Shown: positions 1-61,648 of the stretch, in pieces
How the letters are laid out: each line of letters begins with the position of its first letter
Position numbering within the stretch: the stretch's first letter is position 1
The notes under the pieces: generated by a model
What the model was told of the DNA's origin: nothing
What the model saw: only the letters and a program-made list of their open reading frames with translations
The model's database searches: none
Origin: Candidatus Levyibacteriota bacterium
GTDB lineage: Bacteria > Patescibacteriota > Microgenomatia > Levybacterales > UBA12049
Reading direction: 5' to 3'
DNA: 64,000 bases
Assembly (NCBI GenBank): GCA_016182185.1
Contig: JACOXU010000002.1
Span: forward strand, 22,874 to 86,873
Program-made: the position numbers and the translations under genes

Positions 1-203
1 TGAAAATAAAAAGCAGTGAAAATATCCGCCATGCCCAGGGGCCCTGCTGAGTGTCCGGAGCCTGCCTCAAGCAAAGTTTCGATAATTAGCTCGCGGGTCT
101 TAACAGCTGTAAGTTCAAGCTCTTTAAGTTTGTCTTCGTATAATTCTTCAACCATATATATTTTAAATATAAAATATAAAAGATAAAAAATACAGATCAA
201 AAA

Positions 204-575
204 TCAAATATTTTTATTCTTCCCTTTTAAGGTTAACAGACTTGAGCCAAATATTCTAGAGATCTCATCCAATTCTTTAAGCAAAAAAGCAGTTTTATCT
301 CTATCTACATTATCTGTATCTTTAAGCAATGCAATCCAAACCTTACTTTCATTTGCGGATTTTAAGGAATAATTAAAGTAATTTGTGTAATCTTTTTTTG
401 AACTTGCGGCGTGCCCCTCAATATAGTTGGCTAAGATACTTGTTATGCTTCTTATCAATTGATCTCCAATTATTCTTGATGTGGAAGATTTTTTTGCACT
501 TTCCACCAGTTTAATTGTTTGTAAGATCAGAACATATAATCTTTTTTTAAATTCTTTTGTTTTCTCATTTTTCAT
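204..575 (-). CDS. Four-helix-bundle protein of the 23S rRNA intervening-sequence protein family
   Basis: 123 aa. The 'IIGDQLIRSITSILANYIEG' segment matches the conserved core of this family; ATG at 573-575 on the minus strand. Confidence 0.5.
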   Translation of the reverse strand: MKNEKTKEFKKRLYVLILQTIKLVESAKKSSTSRIIGDQLIRSITSILANYIEGHAASSKKDYTNYFNYSLKSANESKVWIALLKDTDNVDRDKTAFLLKELDEISRIFGSSLLTLKGKNKNI

Positions 576-2789: not shown

Positions 2790-3845
2790 ATGATACGGGT
2801 TGCGATAAATGGCTATGGAAGAATTGGAAGAATTGCTCACAGGGTTATCCTTCAAAAACATACCCAGGAAATAGATGTTGTTGCCATCAATGCTGGTTCC
2901 TCAACAGATATTAAGGGCTGGATGTATCTCTTAAAGTATGACACGTCGTATGGAACACTCCGTGATCATACTTTAGAACTTAAATCTCAAAACTCAAATT
3001 TCAAAGATTCAATTGGATCACTTATTATTGACGGAAAAGAGATTCCGGTTATTTCTCAGAAGGATCCCGGTCTTTTGCCGTGGAGAGACTTAAATGTAGA
3101 TGTAGTCATTGAATCAACAGGACACTTTACTACGGCTGAGAAATTAAAGCCTCATATAGATTCTGGAGCCAAAGCTGTTGTTTTGTCGGCACCAGTTAAA
3201 GGAGGAGAGGTGCCAACTTATGTTATTTCAGTCAATTCAAATAATTATCAAGGCGAGAAGATAATTAATAATGCATCTTGTACTACAAATTGCATTACCC
3301 CGGTGGCAAAAGTAATGGTTGATCATTTTGGAGTGGAAAAGGCAATGATGACCACAATTCATGGCTATACATCAGATCAAAGGATTCAGGACGGAGGGCA
3401 CAAAGACTATAGACGCGCAAGAGCAGCCGCTGAGAATATAATTCCCACCTCAACTGGTGCGACAATTGCAGCAACCGAGGCCGTGCCAGAGCTTAAGGGC
3501 TTATTTAATGGCCTTGCGATAAGAGTTCCGGTCAAGGTCGGTTCACTTTCTGATTTTACTTTTCTTCTTAGAAGGGAAACGACAAAGGAAGAAGTGAATA
3601 ATGTTTTAAGAGAATCAGCCAATAACCCTGCTTTTAAAGGAATTCTTGAAGTAACAGAGGACCCCATTGTTTCAAGTGATATTATCGGTAATCCTCATTC
3701 GGCCATAGTTGATTTATCTCTGACTCAAGTTGTCGGTGGGAATCTGGTAAAAATCATTGCCTGGTATGATAACGAATACGGCTATTCAAGTCGTTTGATT
3801 GAAGAGGTAATTATGATGGGAAACAGATTAAATCCTAATTTCTAA
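2790..3845 (+). CDS. gap: Glyceraldehyde-3-phosphate dehydrogenase, type I
   Basis: N-terminal 'VAINGYGRIGR' Rossmann motif and active-site 'ASCTTNCITP'; 351 aa. Confidence 0.9.
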   Translation: MIRVAINGYGRIGRIAHRVILQKHTQEIDVVAINAGSSTDIKGWMYLLKYDTSYGTLRDHTLELKSQNSNFKDSIGSLIIDGKEIPVISQKDPGLLPWRDLNVDVVIESTGHFTTAEKLKPHIDSGAKAVVLSAPVKGGEVPTYVISVNSNNYQGEKIINNASCTTNCITPVAKVMVDHFGVEKAMMTTIHGYTSDQRIQDGGHKDYRRARAAAENIIPTSTGATIAATEAVPELKGLFNGLAIRVPVKVGSLSDFTFLLRRETTKEEVNNVLRESANNPAFKGILEVTEDPIVSSDIIGNPHSAIVDLSLTQVVGGNLVKIIAWYDNEYGYSSRLIEEVIMMGNRLNPNF

Positions 3846-5554: not shown

Positions 5555-6148
5555 ATGATGGCGAAAAAGAGCGATTATCTTGAGTTCCTCAAGATAGTTG
5601 GAAAATCAAAGAGACTTTTAAGAACCGGATGGGTAAGAGAGGGTATAAAAAACCCGGAAAGCATCGCTGCTCATTCATTTCGTGTAGGCGTTCTCACGAT
5701 GACAGTGGCCGATGAATTAAAAATTGACAAGGATAAGTTAATGAAAATGTCTCTTATTCACAGTCTTGGGGAGGCAATAACAGAAGACAAAGTTTGGGTT
5801 AGGTGGGGAGTCGTAGATTTAAAGGCAAGGAAAGTTAAAGAAGAACAGGAAATAAGAGGAATAGTAGGTCTTTTTAACGGAATTGAAGGAGGAGAGGAGT
5901 ACATTGAGATATTCGAAGAAATGATCTTGCGGTCTTCAAAAGAAGCTAAACTTTTCTGGCAGATTGACAAGCTTGAAATGTCACTACAGGCATATGAGTA
6001 TGAAGAAGAACAAAATAAAAAGCTGGATGAGTTTTTTGCAACTGCTGATTTATATATAAAAGAGCCGTTTTTAAGAGAGATGTTTGATGAAATTATGAGA
6101 AAAAGAGAGGAAAGGGGAAAAACCTTAACAAAACATGAAAGTCTCTGA
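5555..6148 (+). CDS. HD-domain phosphohydrolase, YfbR-like
   Basis: H..H...HD pattern: 'AAHSFRV' ... 'LIHSLGEA'. Confidence 0.55.
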   Translation: MMAKKSDYLEFLKIVGKSKRLLRTGWVREGIKNPESIAAHSFRVGVLTMTVADELKIDKDKLMKMSLIHSLGEAITEDKVWVRWGVVDLKARKVKEEQEIRGIVGLFNGIEGGEEYIEIFEEMILRSSKEAKLFWQIDKLEMSLQAYEYEEEQNKKLDEFFATADLYIKEPFLREMFDEIMRKREERGKTLTKHESL

Positions 6149-7400
6149 TGCGATGTCCAAAAATGTTGACTCTGTACGTACAGATACAAAAGTCAAGGAT
6201 GTCTCACTTCTTATCTTCGGACGCGGTATTAATGGCGTCCCGGTCTTAAAGGGAAAAAAAGTAGTAGGATTTATTACTGAAAGAGATATACTTGCAAAAT
6301 TTTATCCTTCGATATCCGAATATGCCGAGGACCCGTTTCGAGAAGGAAATTTTGAAGAGATGGAGGACAAGGTTGATGAGATTTTTGAGATGCCAGCCGA
6401 TAAGATCATGAGTACTCAAGTAACATTGGTTACTCCCAATACTCCACTTCTTCGAGCTCAATCCCGAATGTTTATAGAAAAAGTAGGGAGACTTCCCGTG
6501 ATAGACAAGAGCGGGAACTTAGTAGGTATTATTTCAAAAGGGGATATCTTCAGAACTTTAGTTGGGGACAGGCTTCTTTTTACAGAAAACGAGGAATATA
6601 ATGACTGGCTTTCCAAAACTTATTACGCCTCTGTCGACATTAAAGACAGATTGGGGCACGAAGTTCCCGATCTTCTAAAAATTTTTGCCCAAAACGAAGT
6701 AAAAAGAATTCTTGACATTGGCTGCGGAACAGGAGATCACGCAATTGATTTTGCGAGAAGAGGGTTTGAGGTAGTTGGGATCGATCGAAGTCAAGGCATG
6801 ATAAGAGAGGCAAATAAAAGAAGACAAGTTCTCTCAAAAGAAGCATCAGAAAGACTTAAATTCTACTGCTCAGACCTTGAAAGCTTTATTCCTAAAATAA
6901 AAACTACGTTTGATGCAGCACTTTTTTTAGGCAATACTATTTCCCATAATCCCCATAACTATCAAGAATTAATAGCAAGAACTTCAAAACATCTATCAGA
7001 AAAAGGAGTCATGGTGCTTCAAATTACAAATTTTAATAAGATTCTGAAGGTGAGGAATAGAATTTTAGGTCTTAATTTTGCAGTGAACAAGGCAGAGCCC
7101 AATAGAGAATACGCATTTGTGGAATTTTATGATAATCCTTCCGATCACGGTAAAACCATACTTAAAACTTTTGCCATACTGACATCAGATGGTGGAAAAA
7201 GATGGAAGTCAACCGGTGTAAGAAATAGTGTCATGGCCTATCTTAACAAAGACAAAATAAATGCCGTTCTTAAAAGAAATGGATTTTCAAAAATTTCTGT
7301 TTTTGGAGGAGCTTTTGACGGAAGACATTGGGACTTTCTATTTAGAAAACCATTTAAAGAACTTGAGAGCGATTGGCTAAATGTTGTTGCAATAAGATAA
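6135..7400 (+). CDS. CBS-pair domain fused to a class I SAM-dependent methyltransferase
   Basis: Two CBS-like repeats in the N-terminal half; 'ILDIGCGTGDHAIDFARRGFEVVGIDRS' SAM-binding motif I/II in the C-terminal half. Confidence 0.6.
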   Translation: MKVSDAMSKNVDSVRTDTKVKDVSLLIFGRGINGVPVLKGKKVVGFITERDILAKFYPSISEYAEDPFREGNFEEMEDKVDEIFEMPADKIMSTQVTLVTPNTPLLRAQSRMFIEKVGRLPVIDKSGNLVGIISKGDIFRTLVGDRLLFTENEEYNDWLSKTYYASVDIKDRLGHEVPDLLKIFAQNEVKRILDIGCGTGDHAIDFARRGFEVVGIDRSQGMIREANKRRQVLSKEASERLKFYCSDLESFIPKIKTTFDAALFLGNTISHNPHNYQELIARTSKHLSEKGVMVLQITNFNKILKVRNRILGLNFAVNKAEPNREYAFVEFYDNPSDHGKTILKTFAILTSDGGKRWKSTGVRNSVMAYLNKDKINAVLKRNGFSKISVFGGAFDGRHWDFLFRKPFKELESDWLNVVAIR

Positions 7401-12061: not shown

Positions 12062-12607
12062 ATGCCAATTTATACCAAAAAAGGTGATAAAGGAAGAACG
12101 TCTCTTTTTACTGGGAAAAAGGTTTCAAAAACTGCAGCAAGAATAGAGGCGATAGGAACTATAGACGAGTTAAATAGCACGATAGGGTTTACAATATCAA
12201 ATATAAAAAATAAAAAATCAAAGATTAAGGAAGAATTAATTGAAATTCAGAGAGATTTGTTTGAAATTGGTGCATCTTTGGCAAATCCATCAACGTTTAG
12301 GAAACTTAAAATTTTAGAGAGGGTTTCACATTTTGAAAAGTTCATAGATGAGATGACGGAACAGATGCCTAAACTTTCAAATTTTATTCTCCCAGGAGGA
12401 ACAACTGCTGCTTCATATTTGCACATCGCCCGTACAGTCTGCCGAAGAGCAGAAAGAAGACTGGTTGCCTTATCACACAAAGAAAGGATTGATAAAAAAA
12501 TCTTAGTTTATATCAACCGACTCTCGGATTTATTTCTAACCATGTCAAGATTCGTGAATTTTAAAAGTGGCAAAGAGGAAACAATCTGGAAAGGAGACCA
12601 TAAATGA
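12062..12607 (+). CDS. ATP:cob(I)alamin adenosyltransferase, PduO-type
   Basis: 'MPIYTKKGDKGRTSLFTGKKVSK...IEAIGTIDELNS' is the characteristic PduO/MMAB N-terminus; 181 aa. Confidence 0.8.
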   Translation: MPIYTKKGDKGRTSLFTGKKVSKTAARIEAIGTIDELNSTIGFTISNIKNKKSKIKEELIEIQRDLFEIGASLANPSTFRKLKILERVSHFEKFIDEMTEQMPKLSNFILPGGTTAASYLHIARTVCRRAERRLVALSHKERIDKKILVYINRLSDLFLTMSRFVNFKSGKEETIWKGDHK

Positions 12608-28183: not shown

Positions 28184-29119
28184 ATGCATTCTGATCAGGA
28201 GAAGTTCGTTTTGATTGATGGCAATGCCATAGTTCACAGAGCTTATCATGTGATGCCCCCACTTACGCGCTCAGACGGCACTCCGACTGGGGCAGTTCAG
28301 GGGTTTTTTTCAATGGTTCTTAAAATCATTCAGGAGCTCAAGCCCGCTCATATTGCAATTGCTTTTGACAGTCCATCCCCAAATTTCCGAAAAGAACTCT
28401 TTAAAGACTATCAATCTCAACGGCCTGCGATGGAGAGTGATTTATCGCCTCAGTTCGGAATAATTCAAGGAATTCTTCAAAAGGCAAAAATCCCCATTTA
28501 TGCTGTTGATGGACTTGAAGCAGATGATATCATCGGCACAATTTCAGAGAAGGCCAAAGAAACAGGCCATCTGGTTTTTATTCTTACAGGAGACAGAGAC
28601 ATGCTTCAGCTTGTGAATCACAAAACCAGAGTCTTAGCACCTGTTAAGGGGATAACAGAAATGATTTTATATGACGAAGAAAAAGTCAAAGAAAAATATG
28701 GTATAGGGCCTAGTCAGTTTGTTGAACTTAAGGCTCTCGTGGGCGATAGCTCTGATAATTACCCCGGAGTTTCGGGTATTGGACCTAAGACTGCCTCAAA
28801 TCTCATTAGTGAATACGGTTCGATAGAAAATATTTACAAAAATATTGAAAAAATCAAAGCCAAAAACCCAAAACTGGCTGAAAAGCTTGAGGCAGGCAAA
28901 GATAATGCAAAACTTGCCCATCAGCTTGCAACAATTTTGGTAGATGCTCCTTTTAAATATGATTTTTCCGACTGTGATATGAAAAATTTGGATGTGGCGG
29001 GCTTTAGGGAGGCTCTGGAAAATTATGATTTTAAGACTCTGCCCAAAAGACTAGACGAAATTTTTACAAAGAACGGAATTGAAAAAATCACAGACAAACA
29101 GATCAAATTAATAGAATGA
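28184..29119 (+). CDS. Standalone 5'-3' exonuclease/flap endonuclease (PolI N-terminal domain-like)
   Basis: 'LIDGNAIVHRAYH' N-terminal motif and H3TH 'GDSSDNYPGVSGIGPKTA'; no polymerase domain. Confidence 0.8.
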   Translation: MHSDQEKFVLIDGNAIVHRAYHVMPPLTRSDGTPTGAVQGFFSMVLKIIQELKPAHIAIAFDSPSPNFRKELFKDYQSQRPAMESDLSPQFGIIQGILQKAKIPIYAVDGLEADDIIGTISEKAKETGHLVFILTGDRDMLQLVNHKTRVLAPVKGITEMILYDEEKVKEKYGIGPSQFVELKALVGDSSDNYPGVSGIGPKTASNLISEYGSIENIYKNIEKIKAKNPKLAEKLEAGKDNAKLAHQLATILVDAPFKYDFSDCDMKNLDVAGFREALENYDFKTLPKRLDEIFTKNGIEKITDKQIKLIE

Positions 29120-30321
29120 GGGTTGCGCTTGTCCATGATTATATCAAGGAATATGGCGGGGCAGAGAGAGTCCTTGAGGCCTTGCATGAGATTTATCCTG
29201 ATGCTCCTGTTTTTACATCTTTGTACATTCCGGAATTTTTAGGGCCACATCGAGAAAGATTTGAAAACTGGGATATAAGAACTTCAATTGCTCAATTTTT
29301 ACCATTTAAGGCAAAACTAATAAGCCCTCTTCGAATTATTGCACCATTATTATTTAAGTCCTTTGATTTTTCAGATTTTGATGTTGTAATTGTTTCTGCG
29401 ACCGGCGCTTATAATCCAAATATTATCAGCAAAAAAATTGCAGTCCAAATTTGCTACTGTCATACTCCGCCTCGTTATCTCTATGGTTTTGCAACAGCCC
29501 GGGAGTGGAAAAATAATGTTATTTTTAGAGTATTAGGAGAATTGGCAAATCATTTTTTAAGACTGGTTGACTTCAGGAGCGCGCAAAATGTAGATTTTTT
29601 CATTGCTAATTCTCAGAATGTGGCAGCCAGAGTCAGGAAATTTTACAGAAAAAATTCAACTGTAATTTACCCGCCGGTAGGGTTGAGCGCTGAGGTCGCT
29701 TCCAAAAATTTTCGTGTTCACAACGCGGGCAAAATTTCTGATTCAGACAAGGCTAATGGCGCAAATGCTCACAGCGAAAATTTTGAGATCTCCCCGCGCT
29801 CATACTATTTGACAGGCGGTAGGCTTGCGAGGCCCAAGCATATAGACTTGATAGTAGAAACTTGTGCTAAATTAAACTTATCATTAAAAGTTTTCGGTAG
29901 GGGGTTTGCTGGTTTTGAGGAGGAAATTAAAAATAAAATATTAAATATCAAAAATACAAATAAAAAATCAAAAATTGAATTTCTTGGAGAAATTAAAGAC
30001 AATATAAAGTTAGAATTAATGAGAAATGCCAAGGCTTTCATAATTGCAGCAGAGGATGAGGATTTTGGCATTACTCCGGTTGAAGCGATGAGCGTAGGAA
30101 CGCCTGTGATAGCATATAGATCGGGTGGAGTTTTAGAATCTATTATTGCGGAAAGAACGGGTCTTTTTTTCAACGAATTGAGCATCGACCATTTATCTAA
30201 GGCAATAAAACAATTTAACAATTTAACAATTAGGCCTGAAGATTGTATTTTTCAGGCCCAAAAATTCTCAAAAGAAAGATTCAAAAAAGAAATTAGCGCT
30301 TTTGTAGAAAATAAAATATAA
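29116..30321 (+). CDS. Glycosyltransferase family 4
   Basis: GT-B fold with 'EDFGITPVEAMSVGTPVIA' (E-x7-E region). Contains an in-frame GC-rich insert of about 40 aa (see 29685-29804). Confidence 0.75.
   Translation: MRVALVHDYIKEYGGAERVLEALHEIYPDAPVFTSLYIPEFLGPHRERFENWDIRTSIAQFLPFKAKLISPLRIIAPLLFKSFDFSDFDVVIVSATGAYNPNIISKKIAVQICYCHTPPRYLYGFATAREWKNNVIFRVLGELANHFLRLVDFRSAQNVDFFIANSQNVAARVRKFYRKNSTVIYPPVGLSAEVASKNFRVHNAGKISDSDKANGANAHSENFEISPRSYYLTGGRLARPKHIDLIVETCAKLNLSLKVFGRGFAGFEEEIKNKILNIKNTNKKSKIEFLGEIKDNIKLELMRNAKAFIIAAEDEDFGITPVEAMSVGTPVIAYRSGGVLESIIAERTGLFFNELSIDHLSKAIKQFNNLTIRPEDCIFQAQKFSKERFKKEISAFVENKI
29685..29804. repeat. GC-rich palindromic element inserted in-frame in the GT4 gene (copy B)
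   Basis: 120 nt (40 codons). Starts TGAGCGCTGAGGTCGCT and ends CCCCGCGCTCATA. The termini are inverted repeats (tgagcgc...gcgctca) and there is an internal palindrome ccaaaaattttcg/cgaaaattttgag. Confidence 0.4.
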
Positions 30322-40055: not shown

Positions 40056-41432
40056 GTGGATTTCGTAGCGGATCTTCATCTACACTCAAAATATTCCCGA
40101 GCTGTTTCTCAAGACATGGTTCTTCCTCAGATGGCAAAATGGGCACGAATTAAAGGAGTTGATGTTTTGTCTGCCACAGATTTTACTCACCCCCTTTGGC
40201 TTAGAGAATTGAAAAGTTTATTAAAAGAAGAGTATGAAGGTTTATATTCTCTTAAATCAGAAGCAGGAAAAACAGGACCTGACAGAACAACTCTCTTTCT
40301 ACTTTCTACAGAAATCTCAAGCATATATAAACAAGAAGATAAGCTTAGAAGAATTCATAATCTTGTCTTTGCTCCAAATATCGAGACAGTCGAGAAGATA
40401 AATAAAGAATTTTTAAGAAGAGGCTTTAATCTTTCCTCCGACGGAAGGCCGATTATCGGCTTGTCGTCTGTCGGACTTTTAGAACTTCTGCTTTCAATTG
40501 ACACAAGAATACTTTTGATCCCTTGTCATGTCTGGACGCCGCATTTTGGTATGTACGGGAGCGCCTCTGGCTTTGATTCTATTGAGGAGTCTTTTGGTGA
40601 ATACGGCAAATATATTTATGGAGTAGAGACCGGGCTTTCGAGTGATCCTGAAATGAATTGGCAAATGGCCGAGCTTAAAACCCGCTCGATTTTATCCTTT
40701 TCAGATGCGCACAGTAATCCCAAGATGGGAAGAGAAGCCACTGTTTTTGCTTTGCGCAAAAACGAAATCTCAAATCTCAAATCTCAAATCACAAATCTAT
40801 CATATGATGATTTTACGCAAGCGATTAAAAGAACTCCTGATTCGAAACTTAAAATAGCTTATACGATTGAGTTTTATCCTGAAGAAGGGAAATATCATTT
40901 CTCAGGACACAGAAACTGCAAGATAGTAAAAGGACCTGATGAGACAAGAAAGGATGGGAACATGTGCCCGGTCTGCAAAAAAAGATTAACTGAAGGTGTT
41001 CTCTACAGGGTACAGCAGTTATCAAGTGAAAAATTAATTGGAAATGTAGATGTCAAATTAAGTCCAAGCGGAATCAAATGGTATACGGACAAGACCAGAA
41101 CTCATCCTCCGTTTGTAAAACTTGTTCCTCTTCTTGAAATTATTGCCGAAGCATTGAAATCAACGACTTCAAGTCAAAAAGTCAGAAATGCATATACGGA
41201 TTTGTGCAAAGAATTCAAATCTGAAATTGAGATTCTGCTCAAGGTCCCGATTGAGACTATCGAAAAGACCGGTGGGCAAAAAATAGCAGAAGGGGTAGAT
41301 AAAGTGAGGCGTGGAGATATCGTAATTGATCCTGGATATGATGGGGAATATGGAAAAGTCAAAATTTGGAACGACCACAGTGTGACAGAAGCGACCAATG
41401 AGGCTATTGCTCAAATTGGAATTGATTTTTAA
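40056..41432 (+). CDS. PHP-domain metal-dependent phosphoesterase
   Basis: 'DLHLHSKYS' PHP motif I at the N-terminus; internal CxxC 'CPVCKK' ribbon. GTG start immediately downstream of a TATAAT box at 40045-50. Confidence 0.6.
   Translation: MDFVADLHLHSKYSRAVSQDMVLPQMAKWARIKGVDVLSATDFTHPLWLRELKSLLKEEYEGLYSLKSEAGKTGPDRTTLFLLSTEISSIYKQEDKLRRIHNLVFAPNIETVEKINKEFLRRGFNLSSDGRPIIGLSSVGLLELLLSIDTRILLIPCHVWTPHFGMYGSASGFDSIEESFGEYGKYIYGVETGLSSDPEMNWQMAELKTRSILSFSDAHSNPKMGREATVFALRKNEISNLKSQITNLSYDDFTQAIKRTPDSKLKIAYTIEFYPEEGKYHFSGHRNCKIVKGPDETRKDGNMCPVCKKRLTEGVLYRVQQLSSEKLIGNVDVKLSPSGIKWYTDKTRTHPPFVKLVPLLEIIAEALKSTTSSQKVRNAYTDLCKEFKSEIEILLKVPIETIEKTGGQKIAEGVDKVRRGDIVIDPGYDGEYGKVKIWNDHSVTEATNEAIAQIGIDF
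40765..40797. repeat. Tandem aaatctc heptamer repeat (x4), in-frame in the PHP gene
   Basis: aaatctcaaatctcaaatctcaaatcacaaatc, encoding 'EISNLKSQITNL'; same motif family as 22084 and 43508. Confidence 0.35.
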
Positions 41433-43225: not shown

Positions 43226-43536
43226 TTTTTGTGAGCTCCCCGCAAATAAATTATTGTATGAAATCAATTAAACAAATTCTAGGAAATTTTGATCCAATTA
43301 AAGATAAATATATTTCTCGAGAATTTCAATCATATGGGATTTATATTGCCGAGACTTTGGATGATCTTAAGCATAGGGGGCTTTATATTAAACTTGCCAA
43401 AACAGTTCATCGTTCAATTCTTGAGAAAGCCCTGGCATATGTCTCAGACAGTAATGCCAAAAATAAAGGAGCACTTTTTATGTGGAAACTCAAAGAATTA
43501 AGAAATAACAAATCTCAATTATCAAATCTCAAATAA
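43222..43536 (+). CDS. Hypothetical protein
   Basis: 104 aa; the C-terminus runs into the AT-rich repeat (encodes '...NKSQLSNLK'). Confidence 0.3.
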   Translation: MIFVSSPQINYCMKSIKQILGNFDPIKDKYISREFQSYGIYIAETLDDLKHRGLYIKLAKTVHRSILEKALAYVSDSNAKNKGALFMWKLKELRNNKSQLSNLK

Positions 43537-43560
43537 GTTCAAAATCTCAATTATCAAAAA
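43508..43560. repeat. AT-rich short repeat, two copies of aaatctcaattatcaaa
   Basis: Copies at 43509-43525 and 43540-43556, straddling the stop of the preceding ORF. Confidence 0.35.
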
Positions 43561-43637
43561 ACAAAACAATTGAATATTTGGATTTTGAACTTCTAGTTTA
43601 ATTAGAGCTTGAAATTTAGGCATTGAAATTTTTACTT

Positions 43638-61510: not shown

Positions 61511-61575
61511 ACAAATCCTAAGTCCTAATTTTTAATTTCTAAACAAATATCAAATCCCAAATCTTAAATTCAAAG
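61511..61575. repeat. Intergenic copy of the AT-rich short repeat
   Basis: acaaatcctaagtcctaatttttaatttctaaacaaatatcaaatcccaaatcttaaattcaaag, just after the trxA stop. Confidence 0.3.
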
Positions 61576-61648
61576 CAGTTTAGGGCTTAGCATTTTGAAA
61601 ATTGGAATTTATTTAGGATTTAGATATTCGGATTTAGGATTTCTTAAT

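Follow-up and report, generated by a model that had tools for sequence, protein, structure and literature searches.

RPE-like palindromic repeats in Microgenomates, including a copy in frame within a GT4 glycosyltransferase gene

Introduction

The closest described relatives, by behaviour, of the repeat considered here are the palindromic elements of Rickettsia, RPE-1 to RPE-10 (Ogata et al., 2000, Science 290:347; Ogata et al., 2002, Genome Res 12:808; both as cited in the passages of PMC10969869 that deal with such elements). The title of the 2002 report, as quoted in the same passages, describes in-frame palindromes as a 'unique but recurrent feature' (PMC10969869). Classical bacterial MITEs, such as Correia/NEMIS, carry terminal inverted repeats and are flanked by target-site duplications (PMC10969869). 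Selfish palindromes residing in frame in essential genes have hitherto been regarded as peculiar to Rickettsia.

The ERIC/IRU elements of enterobacteria are imperfect palindromes of approximately 127 nt with conserved ends, and internal deletions or insertions give rise to shorter and longer variants. Transcription together with an adjacent gene is common, and intragenic copies with open reading frames have been reported; to our knowledge, ERIC elements have not been described as systematic in-frame loops of essential enzymes. REP/REPIN sequences are mobilized by RAYT (Y1 HUH) transposases, and the palindromes derived from IS200/IS605 are comparable. A strand or orientation bias is the expectation for single-stranded intermediates on the lagging-strand template. 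Bacteria of the Candidate Phyla Radiation (CPR) are ultra-small, free-living or epibiotic organisms in which mobile elements are usually said to be scarce, and no paper on palindromic or in-frame repeats in CPR, Microgenomates or Patescibacteria was found in a literature search.

The DNA analysed here, referred to as the window, is a stretch of 64,000 nucleotides from a Candidatus Levyibacteriota bacterium (GenBank assembly GCA_016182185.1, contig JACOXU010000002.1, positions 22,874 to 86,873 of the forward strand), and all window coordinates are counted from its first letter. It contains an RPE-like element in a new phylum.

The element in the glycosyltransferase gene

The host gene (29116..30321, + strand) encodes a GT4-family glycosyltransferase of 401 aa, identified from the ORF list and Pfam, which matches P0001, a protein of Candidatus Levybacteria, at 100% identity. 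Its Glyco_transf_4 (N-terminal) domain extends to approximately residue 189 and its Glycos_transf_1 (C-terminal) domain begins at approximately residue 228 (Pfam); the enzyme thus contains both domains, which are Rossmann-like in the structure model. Between them, flanked by VIYPPVG and YYLTGGRL, lies a codon-aligned insert of 120 nt or 40 codons (L190-S229, 29683-29802). An insert of this length between these conserved segments had been predicted originally, although at 29685-29804, which is off by 1-2 nt; the element itself starts at 29684 and ends at 29802 (+ strand), which gives 119 nt between the outer ends of its two inverted repeats.

This element is the long form of a palindromic family, A, with homologous copies elsewhere. 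It starts with TGAGCGCTGAGGTCGCT at 29684 and is bounded by the terminal inverted repeat that had been proposed for it, TGAGCGC at 29684-29690 and GCGCTCA at 29796-29802. The conserved 5' end GCGCTGAGGTCG (29687..29698, +), which the scan pattern described below required, is followed by the 5' arm of an inner AT stem, AAAATTTTCG (29705..29714, +), at a fixed offset of 8 nt past GGTC. The 3' arm of this stem, CGAAAATTTT (29775..29784, +), and the conserved 3' end CTCCCCGCGC (29790..29799, +) complete the element, and the two AT arms correspond to the inner palindrome noticed earlier. The variable centre of the hairpin (29715..29774, +) is 59-65% identical to those of L001 and L002, the copies with the best-conserved arms, which were used for this comparison.

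The predicted in-frame translation of the element is LSAEVASKNFRVHNAGKISDSDKANGANAHSENFEISPRS. In the AlphaFold model, residues 192-227 have a pLDDT below 50 and are flanked by confidently folded domains; the insert is thus modelled as a low-confidence interdomain loop. GT4 homologues do not share a linker of uniform length at this site. In 115 of the 120 homologues listed, those with both flanking motifs, the linker measures 12-55 aa with a median of 23, as compared with 41 aa in the window, and only about a dozen of those listed contain the element. The description as an insert therefore holds only in part, the element being set in a linker whose length varies among the homologues listed. 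More generally, this linker is a place where several unrelated peptides derived from repeats have accumulated.

A sister copy is found at 21587..21712 (+) in murD (20851..22299, +; 482 aa; ORF list and Pfam). It has a family-A 5' end, GGCGCTGAGGTC at 21589-21600, followed by the core GCTCGGGGTCCTG...CCCGCCAGTGC...GCACTGTCGGG...CCACCCCTCGCTC, and its predicted in-frame translation is IGAEVARGPVPKFLPASARLDDAKPQRLRTVGIPSFRATPRS. As the original prediction stated, the two window copies share an exact 14-mer, GCGCTGAGGTCGCT (29687-29700 in GT4 and 21590-21603 in murD), and have similar 3' ends (CCCCGCGCTC in GT4 and CCCCTCGCTC in murD); the reading frame, AEVA, is common to the two. The divergence of their cores, also predicted, is that between two families, as the murD core is a member of a second dispersed family, B (GCTCGGGGTCCTGTC...GCCACCCCTCGC), copies of which, in other genomes, lie in frame at this very position of GT4 and, elsewhere, between genes. 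Over its full length, the murD copy matches the covariance model described below only weakly (11.3 bits, E 0.7). At this murD site, the MurD orthologues of L002 (445 aa) and L005 (436 aa) are free of the element, and that of L001 (456 aa) has only a core-less 22-nt form, GGCGCTGAGGTCACCCCGCGCC.

Distribution and hairpin structure

Within the window alone, the evidence for a repeat family is weak: the 14-mer match has a blastn E value of ~0.02, one of 100 shuffles gave at least two matches at up to two mismatches, and the fold energy of a single copy is uninformative by itself (z ~-1.5; -1.45 for the GT4 copy). The case for a family therefore rests on sequences outside the window. A scan with the exact pattern, run on one genome per species, yielded 54 stretches against approximately 2 expected by chance, so that the further copies sought in the original prediction do exist; nearly all are from Levybacteria, Gottesmanbacteria and Microgenomates. 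Several MAGs contain at least 4-11 copies each, with at least 11 in JACOXV01. Since the scan patterns require the conserved ends, conservation of these ends in the matches is partly by construction; GT4 homologues and short forms, however, yielded the 5' end even where the pattern did not impose it.

A covariance model (R1) built from 31 long-form copies, including the window GT4 copy, identified 73 copies at 58 loci, which together with the two window copies makes 75. In these copies the same two ends enclose differing cores, in agreement with the proposal that the termini define the family. For the GT4 copy the score is 107 bits (29683-29803, E 3e-25), partly by construction because this copy is itself among the 31 in the model; the other long-form copies of the training set score 74-114 bits. 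A further window match of 12 bits (24322-24392, - strand) lies inside a conserved aminoacyl-tRNA synthetase-like coding segment and was rejected as chance. Short forms were found in low-GC metagenome contigs. Of the metagenome matches in high-GC contigs, approximately 55 of 86 do not form hairpins, and these were treated as chance. No long form was detected in viral contigs, in which the short pattern gave one high-GC chance match. At the protein level, a profile search of a 5.8-billion protein index, the word index of which is ill-suited to 40-aa inserts, returned only three tiny spurious ORFs. HMMER against 1.84 billion cluster representatives, which often do not carry the insert, gave five matches (a FolC-like protein, DprA, GT4, a small ORF and a false positive).

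Each family copy was shown to be one long imperfect hairpin. The two conserved ends form its foot, which consists of imperfect inverted repeats, GCGCKGRGG, with fixed internal loops, and which is lengthened by a covarying flanking base pair (N-GCGC...GCGC-N'). Above the foot is a short stem that covaries between copies; next, in the subfamily of the GT4 copy, comes a AAAATTTT stem, and a variable centre closes the hairpin. Measured between or including the conserved ends, the copies fall into size classes of 22-28, 38-50, 74-88 and 98-125 nt, the smallest being a core-less form of 22 nt and the largest reaching 125 nt. Small size (22-125 nt), absence of coding capacity, many dispersed copies per genome and terminal inverted repeats, GCGC(T/G)G(A/G)GG at both ends, are all features expected of MITEs. 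The hairpin is maintained through compensatory changes: its 24 pairs are 94% paired versus 85% in shuffles, and double-change cells number 68 versus 16.9 in shuffles, a value of 68 being reached by none of 500 shuffles and slid registers giving at most 18.

Taken together, the GT4 insert is very probably a non-coding, non-autonomous palindromic repeat of the MITE/RPE type that is dispersed through the Microgenomates branch of CPR. Copies would land, or be copied, both between and inside genes, and genic copies would last only in tolerated loops or domain linkers, in sense orientation and free of stop codons. In GT4, as the frame statistics and the structure model suggest, the element would be translated as a disordered loop of approximately 40 aa between the Rossmann-like domains, and the loop probably has little or no effect on the enzyme.

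Orientation, spread and exchange of copies

Approximately 40% of the copies lie in frame within unrelated housekeeping genes and the remainder are intergenic, which is the distribution of dispersed in-frame palindromes that characterizes RPEs. The hosts confirmed by Pfam are DprA, class II RNR, NAD(P)H-hydrate dehydratase, LeuRS, RadA, WecG/TagA, TopoI, Tgt, YchF and a FolC-like ligase; visual inspection added IF-2, PrsA and transketolase, and the DprA, FolC-like and GT4 hosts were found again in a protein library. The genic copies, numbering approximately 30 at approximately 19 independent sites, are oriented in sense in 29 cases and in antisense in at most one. Intergenic copies between co-directional genes follow the same trend (20 same-sense versus 7 opposite), all copies are co-oriented on contigs with several of them, and the sense strand has a positive GC skew at 54 of 57 loci. 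This strand bias could be due to transcription or gene orientation rather than replication.

Two intergenic copies (L004, 20906-21039; L029, 7660-7793) have arms near-identical to those of the GT4 copy in the same genome, and both have a TAG in the coding frame. The original prediction had called for a search for target-site duplications around the GT4 and murD copies, and none was visible at either, nor flanking the near-identical, recent L004 and L029 copies. A transposase or other autonomous partner was not present among the ten neighbouring ORFs, all of which are ordinary genes. Since neither a target-site duplication nor an empty-site pair was found at nucleotide resolution, we infer the mobility of the family only from its distribution. 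Given the strand bias, a foot that is both conserved and asymmetric, and no visible target-site duplication, our best guess, held with low confidence, is that the element may spread via a single-stranded hairpin intermediate on which trans-acting machinery operates, in the manner of IS200/IS605 and REP/RAYT.

The GT4 arms of the window and L001 are 95-97% identical while the flanking coding sequence is 66-67% identical, and in L003, the closest relative by protein identity, the GT4 copy is decayed. Different species have a long A, a 46-nt A or a B element at the GT4 site, a 22-nt A or an A plus B element at the murD site, and an 88-nt or long form at the DprA site. Such near-identical arms despite saturated host genes, together with differing variants at orthologous sites, point to copies that continue to exchange sequence, whether through gene conversion or re-insertion, or to a nucleotide-level constraint from the copying machinery. 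A more specific proposal, which we hold to be rather doubtful, is that the foot GCGCTGAGGTC...CCCCGCGC acts as a module for landing or recombination that can be used repeatedly and that, at tolerated loops of essential genes, the cores (A-long, A-short and B) are swapped in and out of it. Swapping might then proceed by gene conversion or via a single-stranded hairpin intermediate coupled to replication. If so, Microgenomates would possess a cassette-like system that keeps rewriting the surface loops of housekeeping proteins, and protein-coding palindromes would have arisen a second time after Rickettsia, independently and by a different mechanism.

Alternative explanations

The element might instead be a nucleic-acid signal kept by the host (for example a hairpin for mRNA stabilization or processing, a terminator, an attenuator, or a DNA site to which a protein binds) and merely tolerated in coding sequence. 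The compensatory changes in the stem, the much better conservation of the arms than of the host coding sequence and the sense-strand bias are all consistent with such a role, as is the position of 17 of the 32 intergenic copies, which begin -7 to +8 nt from the upstream stop codon, where 3'-end hairpins sit. However, this last placement is expected anyway, since tiny spacers leave little room if the promoter or ribosome-binding site of the downstream gene is to stay intact. Orthologous genes differ in whether they carry the element and in its size, the copy in L003 has decayed, and no T-run follows the hairpin in the varied 3' flanks, as an intrinsic terminator would require. In the stem, G-T mismatches (12) and A-C mismatches (17) are equally common, and thus there is no sign of selection specifically on the sense RNA. 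A scan of both inserts against Rfam gave only sub-threshold noise (mir-7957, Na+ riboswitch, 15-22 bits), with no family near its gathering score (best 15.6 bits versus 40.5). A host-kept signal is therefore improbable.

It is also conceivable that the peptide itself is selected, i.e. that the xAEVA...ENF...SPR loop serves interaction or localization and the DNA palindrome is secondary. Nearly all of the genic copies use this one frame, although other frames are often open: the AEVA frame accounts for 28% of all open frames. This is stricter than avoidance of stop codons predicts, and hydropathy as the cause of the frame choice was not supported, so some selection on the insert peptide or the mRNA may operate. 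Against a functional peptide, it is the nucleotide sequence that is conserved, at every codon position and with covarying stems; most copies are intergenic, some with stop codons; the centre of the peptide is not conserved; the model confidence in GT4 is low; and the hosts have no functional relation to each other. The insert peptides matched no Pfam or NCBIfam model at E values up to 10. We thus regard a selected module as very unlikely.

An intervening sequence absent from the mature enzyme, whether a mini-intron, an insert cut out and religated in RNase III fashion or a mini-intein, would fit the conserved internal loops of the hairpin, which lie exactly at the insert boundaries. CPR genomes are known for rRNA intervening sequences, and the FtsH gene of a related locus has inteins. 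However, every genic copy is in frame and free of stop codons, while the AEVA frame of intergenic copies is stop-free in only 58% (42% contain a stop). The absence of stops argues for translation and would be unnecessary if the RNA were excised. Further, at 40 aa the insert falls short of the size of an intein and has no intein motifs, it is not covered by any Pfam domain, Rfam intron families gave no match, and neither splicing domains nor a catalytic RNA core were found. An excised insert is accordingly a highly improbable explanation.

Finally, an ordinary lineage-specific variable linker that resembles the murD insert by chance, as the hypervariability of the site and the weak window-only statistics might suggest, is refuted by the scan count, the intergenic paralogues, the covariation and the covariance-model copies, among them the GT4 copy's own score against a model that includes it.

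Significance and comparison with known systems

The dispersed MITE/RPE-type repeat thus remains the preferred explanation. Rickettsia-like behaviour in CPR would make the phenomenon convergent and tied to small genomes, and the family would supply a concrete source of many lineage-specific insertions in CPR proteins. For annotation and phylogenomics, loops derived from the element inflate alignments, split Pfam domains and create spurious small ORFs, while arms that are near-identical across species can serve as sequence markers. A hairpin that is 95% identical in a host gene that has fallen to 66% is, in addition, a tractable puzzle.

Similarity to ERIC/IRU lies in the imperfect palindrome, the conserved ends and the size variants; ERIC, however, is mainly extragenic and unrelated in sequence. 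With REP/RAYT and IS200/IS605, the Microgenomates family shares short imperfect hairpins, a conserved asymmetric foot, strand bias and the lack of target-site duplication. It differs from REP in having no GTAG head and in being genic in approximately 40% of copies, REP being extragenic, and from REPIN in that its copies are single and co-oriented rather than inverted doublets; no RAYT or TnpA gene was present in the ten flanking ORFs examined. Like MITEs, it is small, non-coding and multi-copy, forms a hairpin and can give in-frame fusions, and it has terminal inverted repeats, albeit imperfect ones. Unlike classical MITEs, it has no detectable target-site duplication, and the scan of ten flanking ORFs identified no parent insertion sequence with matching inverted repeats.

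RPEs provide the known example of in-frame residence of this kind. At the peptide level, no similarity to an RPE family consensus was found in Pfam or in NCBIfam, which presumably includes the TIGRFAM-derived RPE domain models, at E values up to 10. In the passages of PMC10969869 that describe them, RPEs, like the present family, are dispersed palindromic repeats of approximately 100-150 nt without an ORF of their own, many copies of which lie in frame in unrelated housekeeping genes and others between genes; the peptides they encode can be accommodated in the host fold at surface or loop positions, and the host lineage has a small, reduced genome. The present family differs from RPEs in its host, a CPR Microgenomates lineage and not the Alphaproteobacteria, and in its modular construction, in which a conserved foot is combined with interchangeable cores at sizes down to 22 nt. 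It differs further in its strict sense orientation and single reading frame, in arms that are far better conserved than the host genes, and in the presence of different variants at the same gene sites in different species.

Dispersal and structure of the palindromic family

Family A, the palindromic repeat typified by the insert in the GT4 gene, is a structured, non-coding palindrome in dispersed copies, those within genes lying in frame and in the sense orientation. The original prediction, an element family with copies in GT4 and murD, is confirmed as an observation and supported in its interpretation. The further copies that it anticipated were found by an exact-pattern motif scan of one genome per species, which returned 54 stretches where roughly 2 were expected, nearly all of them from MAGs of Levybacteria, Gottesmanbacteria, Microgenomates or Patescibacteria, single MAGs carrying as many as 11 copies or more. 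In the L004 genome, an intergenic copy has arms near-identical to those of the genome's own GT4 copy, and its coding frame is interrupted by TAG.

Aligning 31 long copies yielded a 24-pair hairpin. Hairpin positions were paired in 94% of cases, compared with 85% in shuffles, and 68 double-change cells were observed against 16.9 in shuffles (68 was reached in 0 of 500) and at most 18 in slid registers. Covarying stem pairs include GCTAAT/ATTAGC, GCCAAC/GTTGGC, GTCCAC/GTGGAC and GGTAC/GTACC. A covariance model of the 31 copies, the GT4 copy of the window among them, scored that copy at 107 bits and recovered 73 across the fetched loci, 46-nt and 22-nt forms included. One weak full-length hit in the window (24322-24392, minus strand; 12.2 bits, E 0.4) was judged to be chance, being conserved coding sequence of a plus-strand aminoacyl-tRNA synthetase-like gene. 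A metagenome scan for short forms gave about 30 additional hairpins on low-GC contigs, with the same ends and several different cores; two are collapsed AAAATTTT versions, apparently derived from long forms by internal deletion.

The element also occurs in MAGs labelled 'uncultured Gammaproteobacteria' (binchicken co-assemblies; loci L013, L016, L019, L028, L031, L034, L035, L044-L046, L048 and L049). These have a GC content of about 38-40% and CPR-like genes, for example of the same GT4 family, and their label looks wrong.

The GT4 gene and its linker

The window (38% GC) is a fragment of a Candidatus Levybacteria genome (CPR, Microgenomates). Its GT4 protein (29116-30321), in which a domain search identified Glyco_transf_4 and Glycos_transf_1 domains, matches a protein of an NCBI Levybacteria MAG at 100% identity. 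The segment LSAEVASKNFRVHNAGKISDSDKANGANAHSENFEISPRS separates VIYPPVG from YYLTGGRL and, aligned to codons, occupies 29683-29802 (120 nt). The interval first proposed, 29685-29804, had the right length and bounds off by 1-2 nt, the quoted string starting at 29684 and GCGCTCA ending at 29802. The terminal inverted repeat TGAGCGC/GCGCTCA is present, as are the inner palindrome (AAAATTTTCG, 29705-29714; CGAAAATTTT, 29775-29784) and the exact 14-mer GCGCTGAGGTCGCT common to the GT4 and murD inserts, which is read in the identical frame in both; their 3' ends are similar. Within the window alone, the 14-mer match has an E-value of about 0.02 and the GT4 insert a fold z-score of -1.45, values that are no more than suggestive.

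Thirty-three GT4 homologues were aligned, and linker length was measured in the 115 of 120 listed that had both flanking motifs identified. Across these 115, the stretch following IYPPV is hypervariable (12-55 aa, median 23). An xAEVA...SPR-type insert occurs in 9 homologues, with decayed versions in 2-3 further, and an alternative insert, GPVPxFLPASA...RxVGxPSxxxTPRS, in 3-4; AT-rich, repeat-like peptides fill the site in most others. At the DNA level, the inserts have a common 5' GCGCTGAGGTYG and 3' CTCCCCGCG, and the long forms an additional common AAAATTTT stem at a fixed offset, while the GT4 genes at loci L005 and L006 carry a 46-nt form (GGCGCTGAGGTTGCCCCGCCAGGGCGGGGCTCCCCGCGC). Locus L006 also encodes the FtsH of that related genome (1364-7192), a 1942-aa protein with intein and LAGLIDADG domains. 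An AlphaFold2 model run on the homologue alignment folded both Rossmann-like domains, with pLDDT below 50 for residues 192-227, between strands 182-184 and 230-234. The insert is thus modelled as an interdomain loop; it is probably a neutral passenger, the family being the interesting result.

Three further insertion hot spots with recurring repeat-like peptides (CHPELVSGS...QVRHD, VIARSEERATRQS...GIASPLRGLAMT, PSAGSGQA and FKIQNSKFKI) lie at alignment columns 127-175, 355-395 and 455-470, which suggests colonisation of the gene by several element families. An AT-rich, AAATCCCAAATCACAAAT-like repeat family is also dispersed in the window (161-221, 12188-12223, 22077-22115, 29925-29985, 40758-40796, 43496-43572 and 61513-61648). 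In-frame copies occur in murD (ITNPKSQINSKIQ), the third variable loop of GT4 (KNKILNIKNTNKKSK) and an ORF of 181 aa (12062-12607; NIKNKKSKIK); the related peptides NPKSQIPNKS and KYKIQNT occupy the GT4 linker in many homologues.

The murD copy and family B

The murD insert spans 21587-21712 (126 nt). Because gene order is conserved, murD orthologues can be compared: those of L002 and L005 are without an insert, and that of L001 carries a 22-nt form without a core (GGCGCTGAGGTCACCCCGCGCC) precisely at the 126-nt site. The murD copy scores weakly against the family-A model (11.3 bits). Its core (GCTCGGGGTCCTGTC...CCCGCCAGTGC...GCACTGTCGGG...CCACCCCTCGC) differs from that of GT4, as originally noted, and is the core of another dispersed family, B. 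Family B lies in frame in murD at 21601-21710 (GCTCGGGGTCCTGTC...CCCGCCAGTGC...GCRCTGTCGGG...GCCACCCCTCGC), between thioredoxin and thioredoxin reductase genes in L046 (6150-6250), and in the L133 gene for a distant GT4 (about 3190-3379, minus strand), in frame at its IYPPV site, where a family-A 3' end follows. Its peptide signature is found in GT4 homologues P0014, P0092 and P0115, and its 5' module directly upstream of several mid-size A copies. Family-B ends (GCKMGGGGT) resemble family-A ends; the proposal of a family defined by its termini is therefore borne out, and the family is modular.

MurD of the window has an extra 10-aa insert, SFAKASAGKP (TCCTTCGCTAAGGCTTCGGCGGGCAAGCCA, 21310-21339), absent from L001, L002 and L005 MurD, which looks like another short repeat-derived insertion.

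Placement, strand and frame

Among 75 copies, 29 lie in sense inside long ORFs, 45 are intergenic and 1 is ambiguous (antisense, near a 5' end). Hosts confirmed by Pfam are DprA, class II ribonucleotide reductase, NAD(P)H-hydrate dehydratase, LeuRS, RadA, WecG/TagA, topoisomerase I, Tgt, YchF and a FolC-like ligase, with several domains split in two by the element; IF-2, PrsA and transketolase were identified by eye. DprA and FolC-like hosts were found again in other species. Nearly all genic copies read xAEVA...SPR, and two begin in another frame and finish in the SPR frame. In 43 intergenic copies this frame is open in 58%, making up 28% of all open frames, and antisense frames are open in 23-40%; genic orientation and frame are therefore more uniform than avoidance of stop codons predicts. 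Hydropathy did not explain the choice of frame. No genic copy contains a stop, which favours translation of the insert over its removal from the RNA.

Intergenic copies follow the sense of the neighbouring gene in 20 cases against 7. On multi-copy contigs, copies are invariably co-oriented (L061, L058, L025, L027, L014, L053, L008, L040, L021, L004/L029 and the window), and GC skew is positive on the element sense strand in 54 of 57 loci. Seventeen of 32 intergenic family-A copies start -7 to +8 nt from the stop codon of an upstream same-strand ORF (for example L004 20906, L029 7660, L027 7182, L058 2078 and L016 1450), and the downstream genes begin 7-73 nt past the element.

In L061, co-orientation and positive skew hold though most genes are on the opposite strand. 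Two of its copies (5773-5865 and 6612-6704) have identical 3' flanks with ATG, and opposite-strand paralogous ORFs beginning MNIL run across the element in one of its antisense frames. They could represent N-terminal antisense fusions, unless the genuine start codons lie further downstream.

Conservation and possible exchange of variants

Comparison of the GT4 copies of the window and L001 gives identities of 95-97% for the 40-nt arms and 65% for the centre, against 66-67% for flanking coding sequence (300 nt on each side). In L003, the closest relative by protein identity, the copy is decayed (arm identity 65-72%). Orthologous sites also hold different variants from one species to another: long A, 46-nt A or B in GT4; 22-nt A or A plus B in murD; an 88-nt or long form in DprA; and variants in WecG and NnrD. 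In the JAMCYD01 MAG, GT4 carries a short form, and TopoI and the adjoining gene carry long ones. This pattern is compatible with ongoing exchange between copies, with repeated insertion into the same sites and also with a requirement on the arms at the nucleotide level, and it does not fit a passively drifting linker. Non-Watson-Crick cells (12 G-T, 17 A-C) were counted as equally frequent, so nothing in them points to selection on the sense RNA specifically.

Mechanism and comparison with known systems

A genic element would be translated as a tolerated loop, selection would filter insertions by site, strand and frame, and exchange between copies would be ongoing. No transposase was found in the examined flanks, no target-site duplication was seen at the copies, and no copy was found in the viral contigs scanned. 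Strand bias, the missing duplication and a conserved asymmetric foot weakly indicate a single-stranded hairpin intermediate of the IS200/IS605 or REP-RAYT type.

The insert peptides matched no Pfam or NCBIfam model and the inserts no Rfam family. No report of comparable elements from CPR, Microgenomates or Patescibacteria was found in searchable full text, which does not in itself prove novelty. REP elements are defined by a GTAG head, extragenic placement and doublets, whereas family A has no GTAG head, is in part genic and does not come in doublets. In behaviour, the nearest known parallel is the Rickettsia palindromic elements (RPE; PMC10969869). Family A is RPE-like in that respect, but it appears unrelated in sequence, occurs in a different phylum, is modular and is strict in its use of strand and frame.
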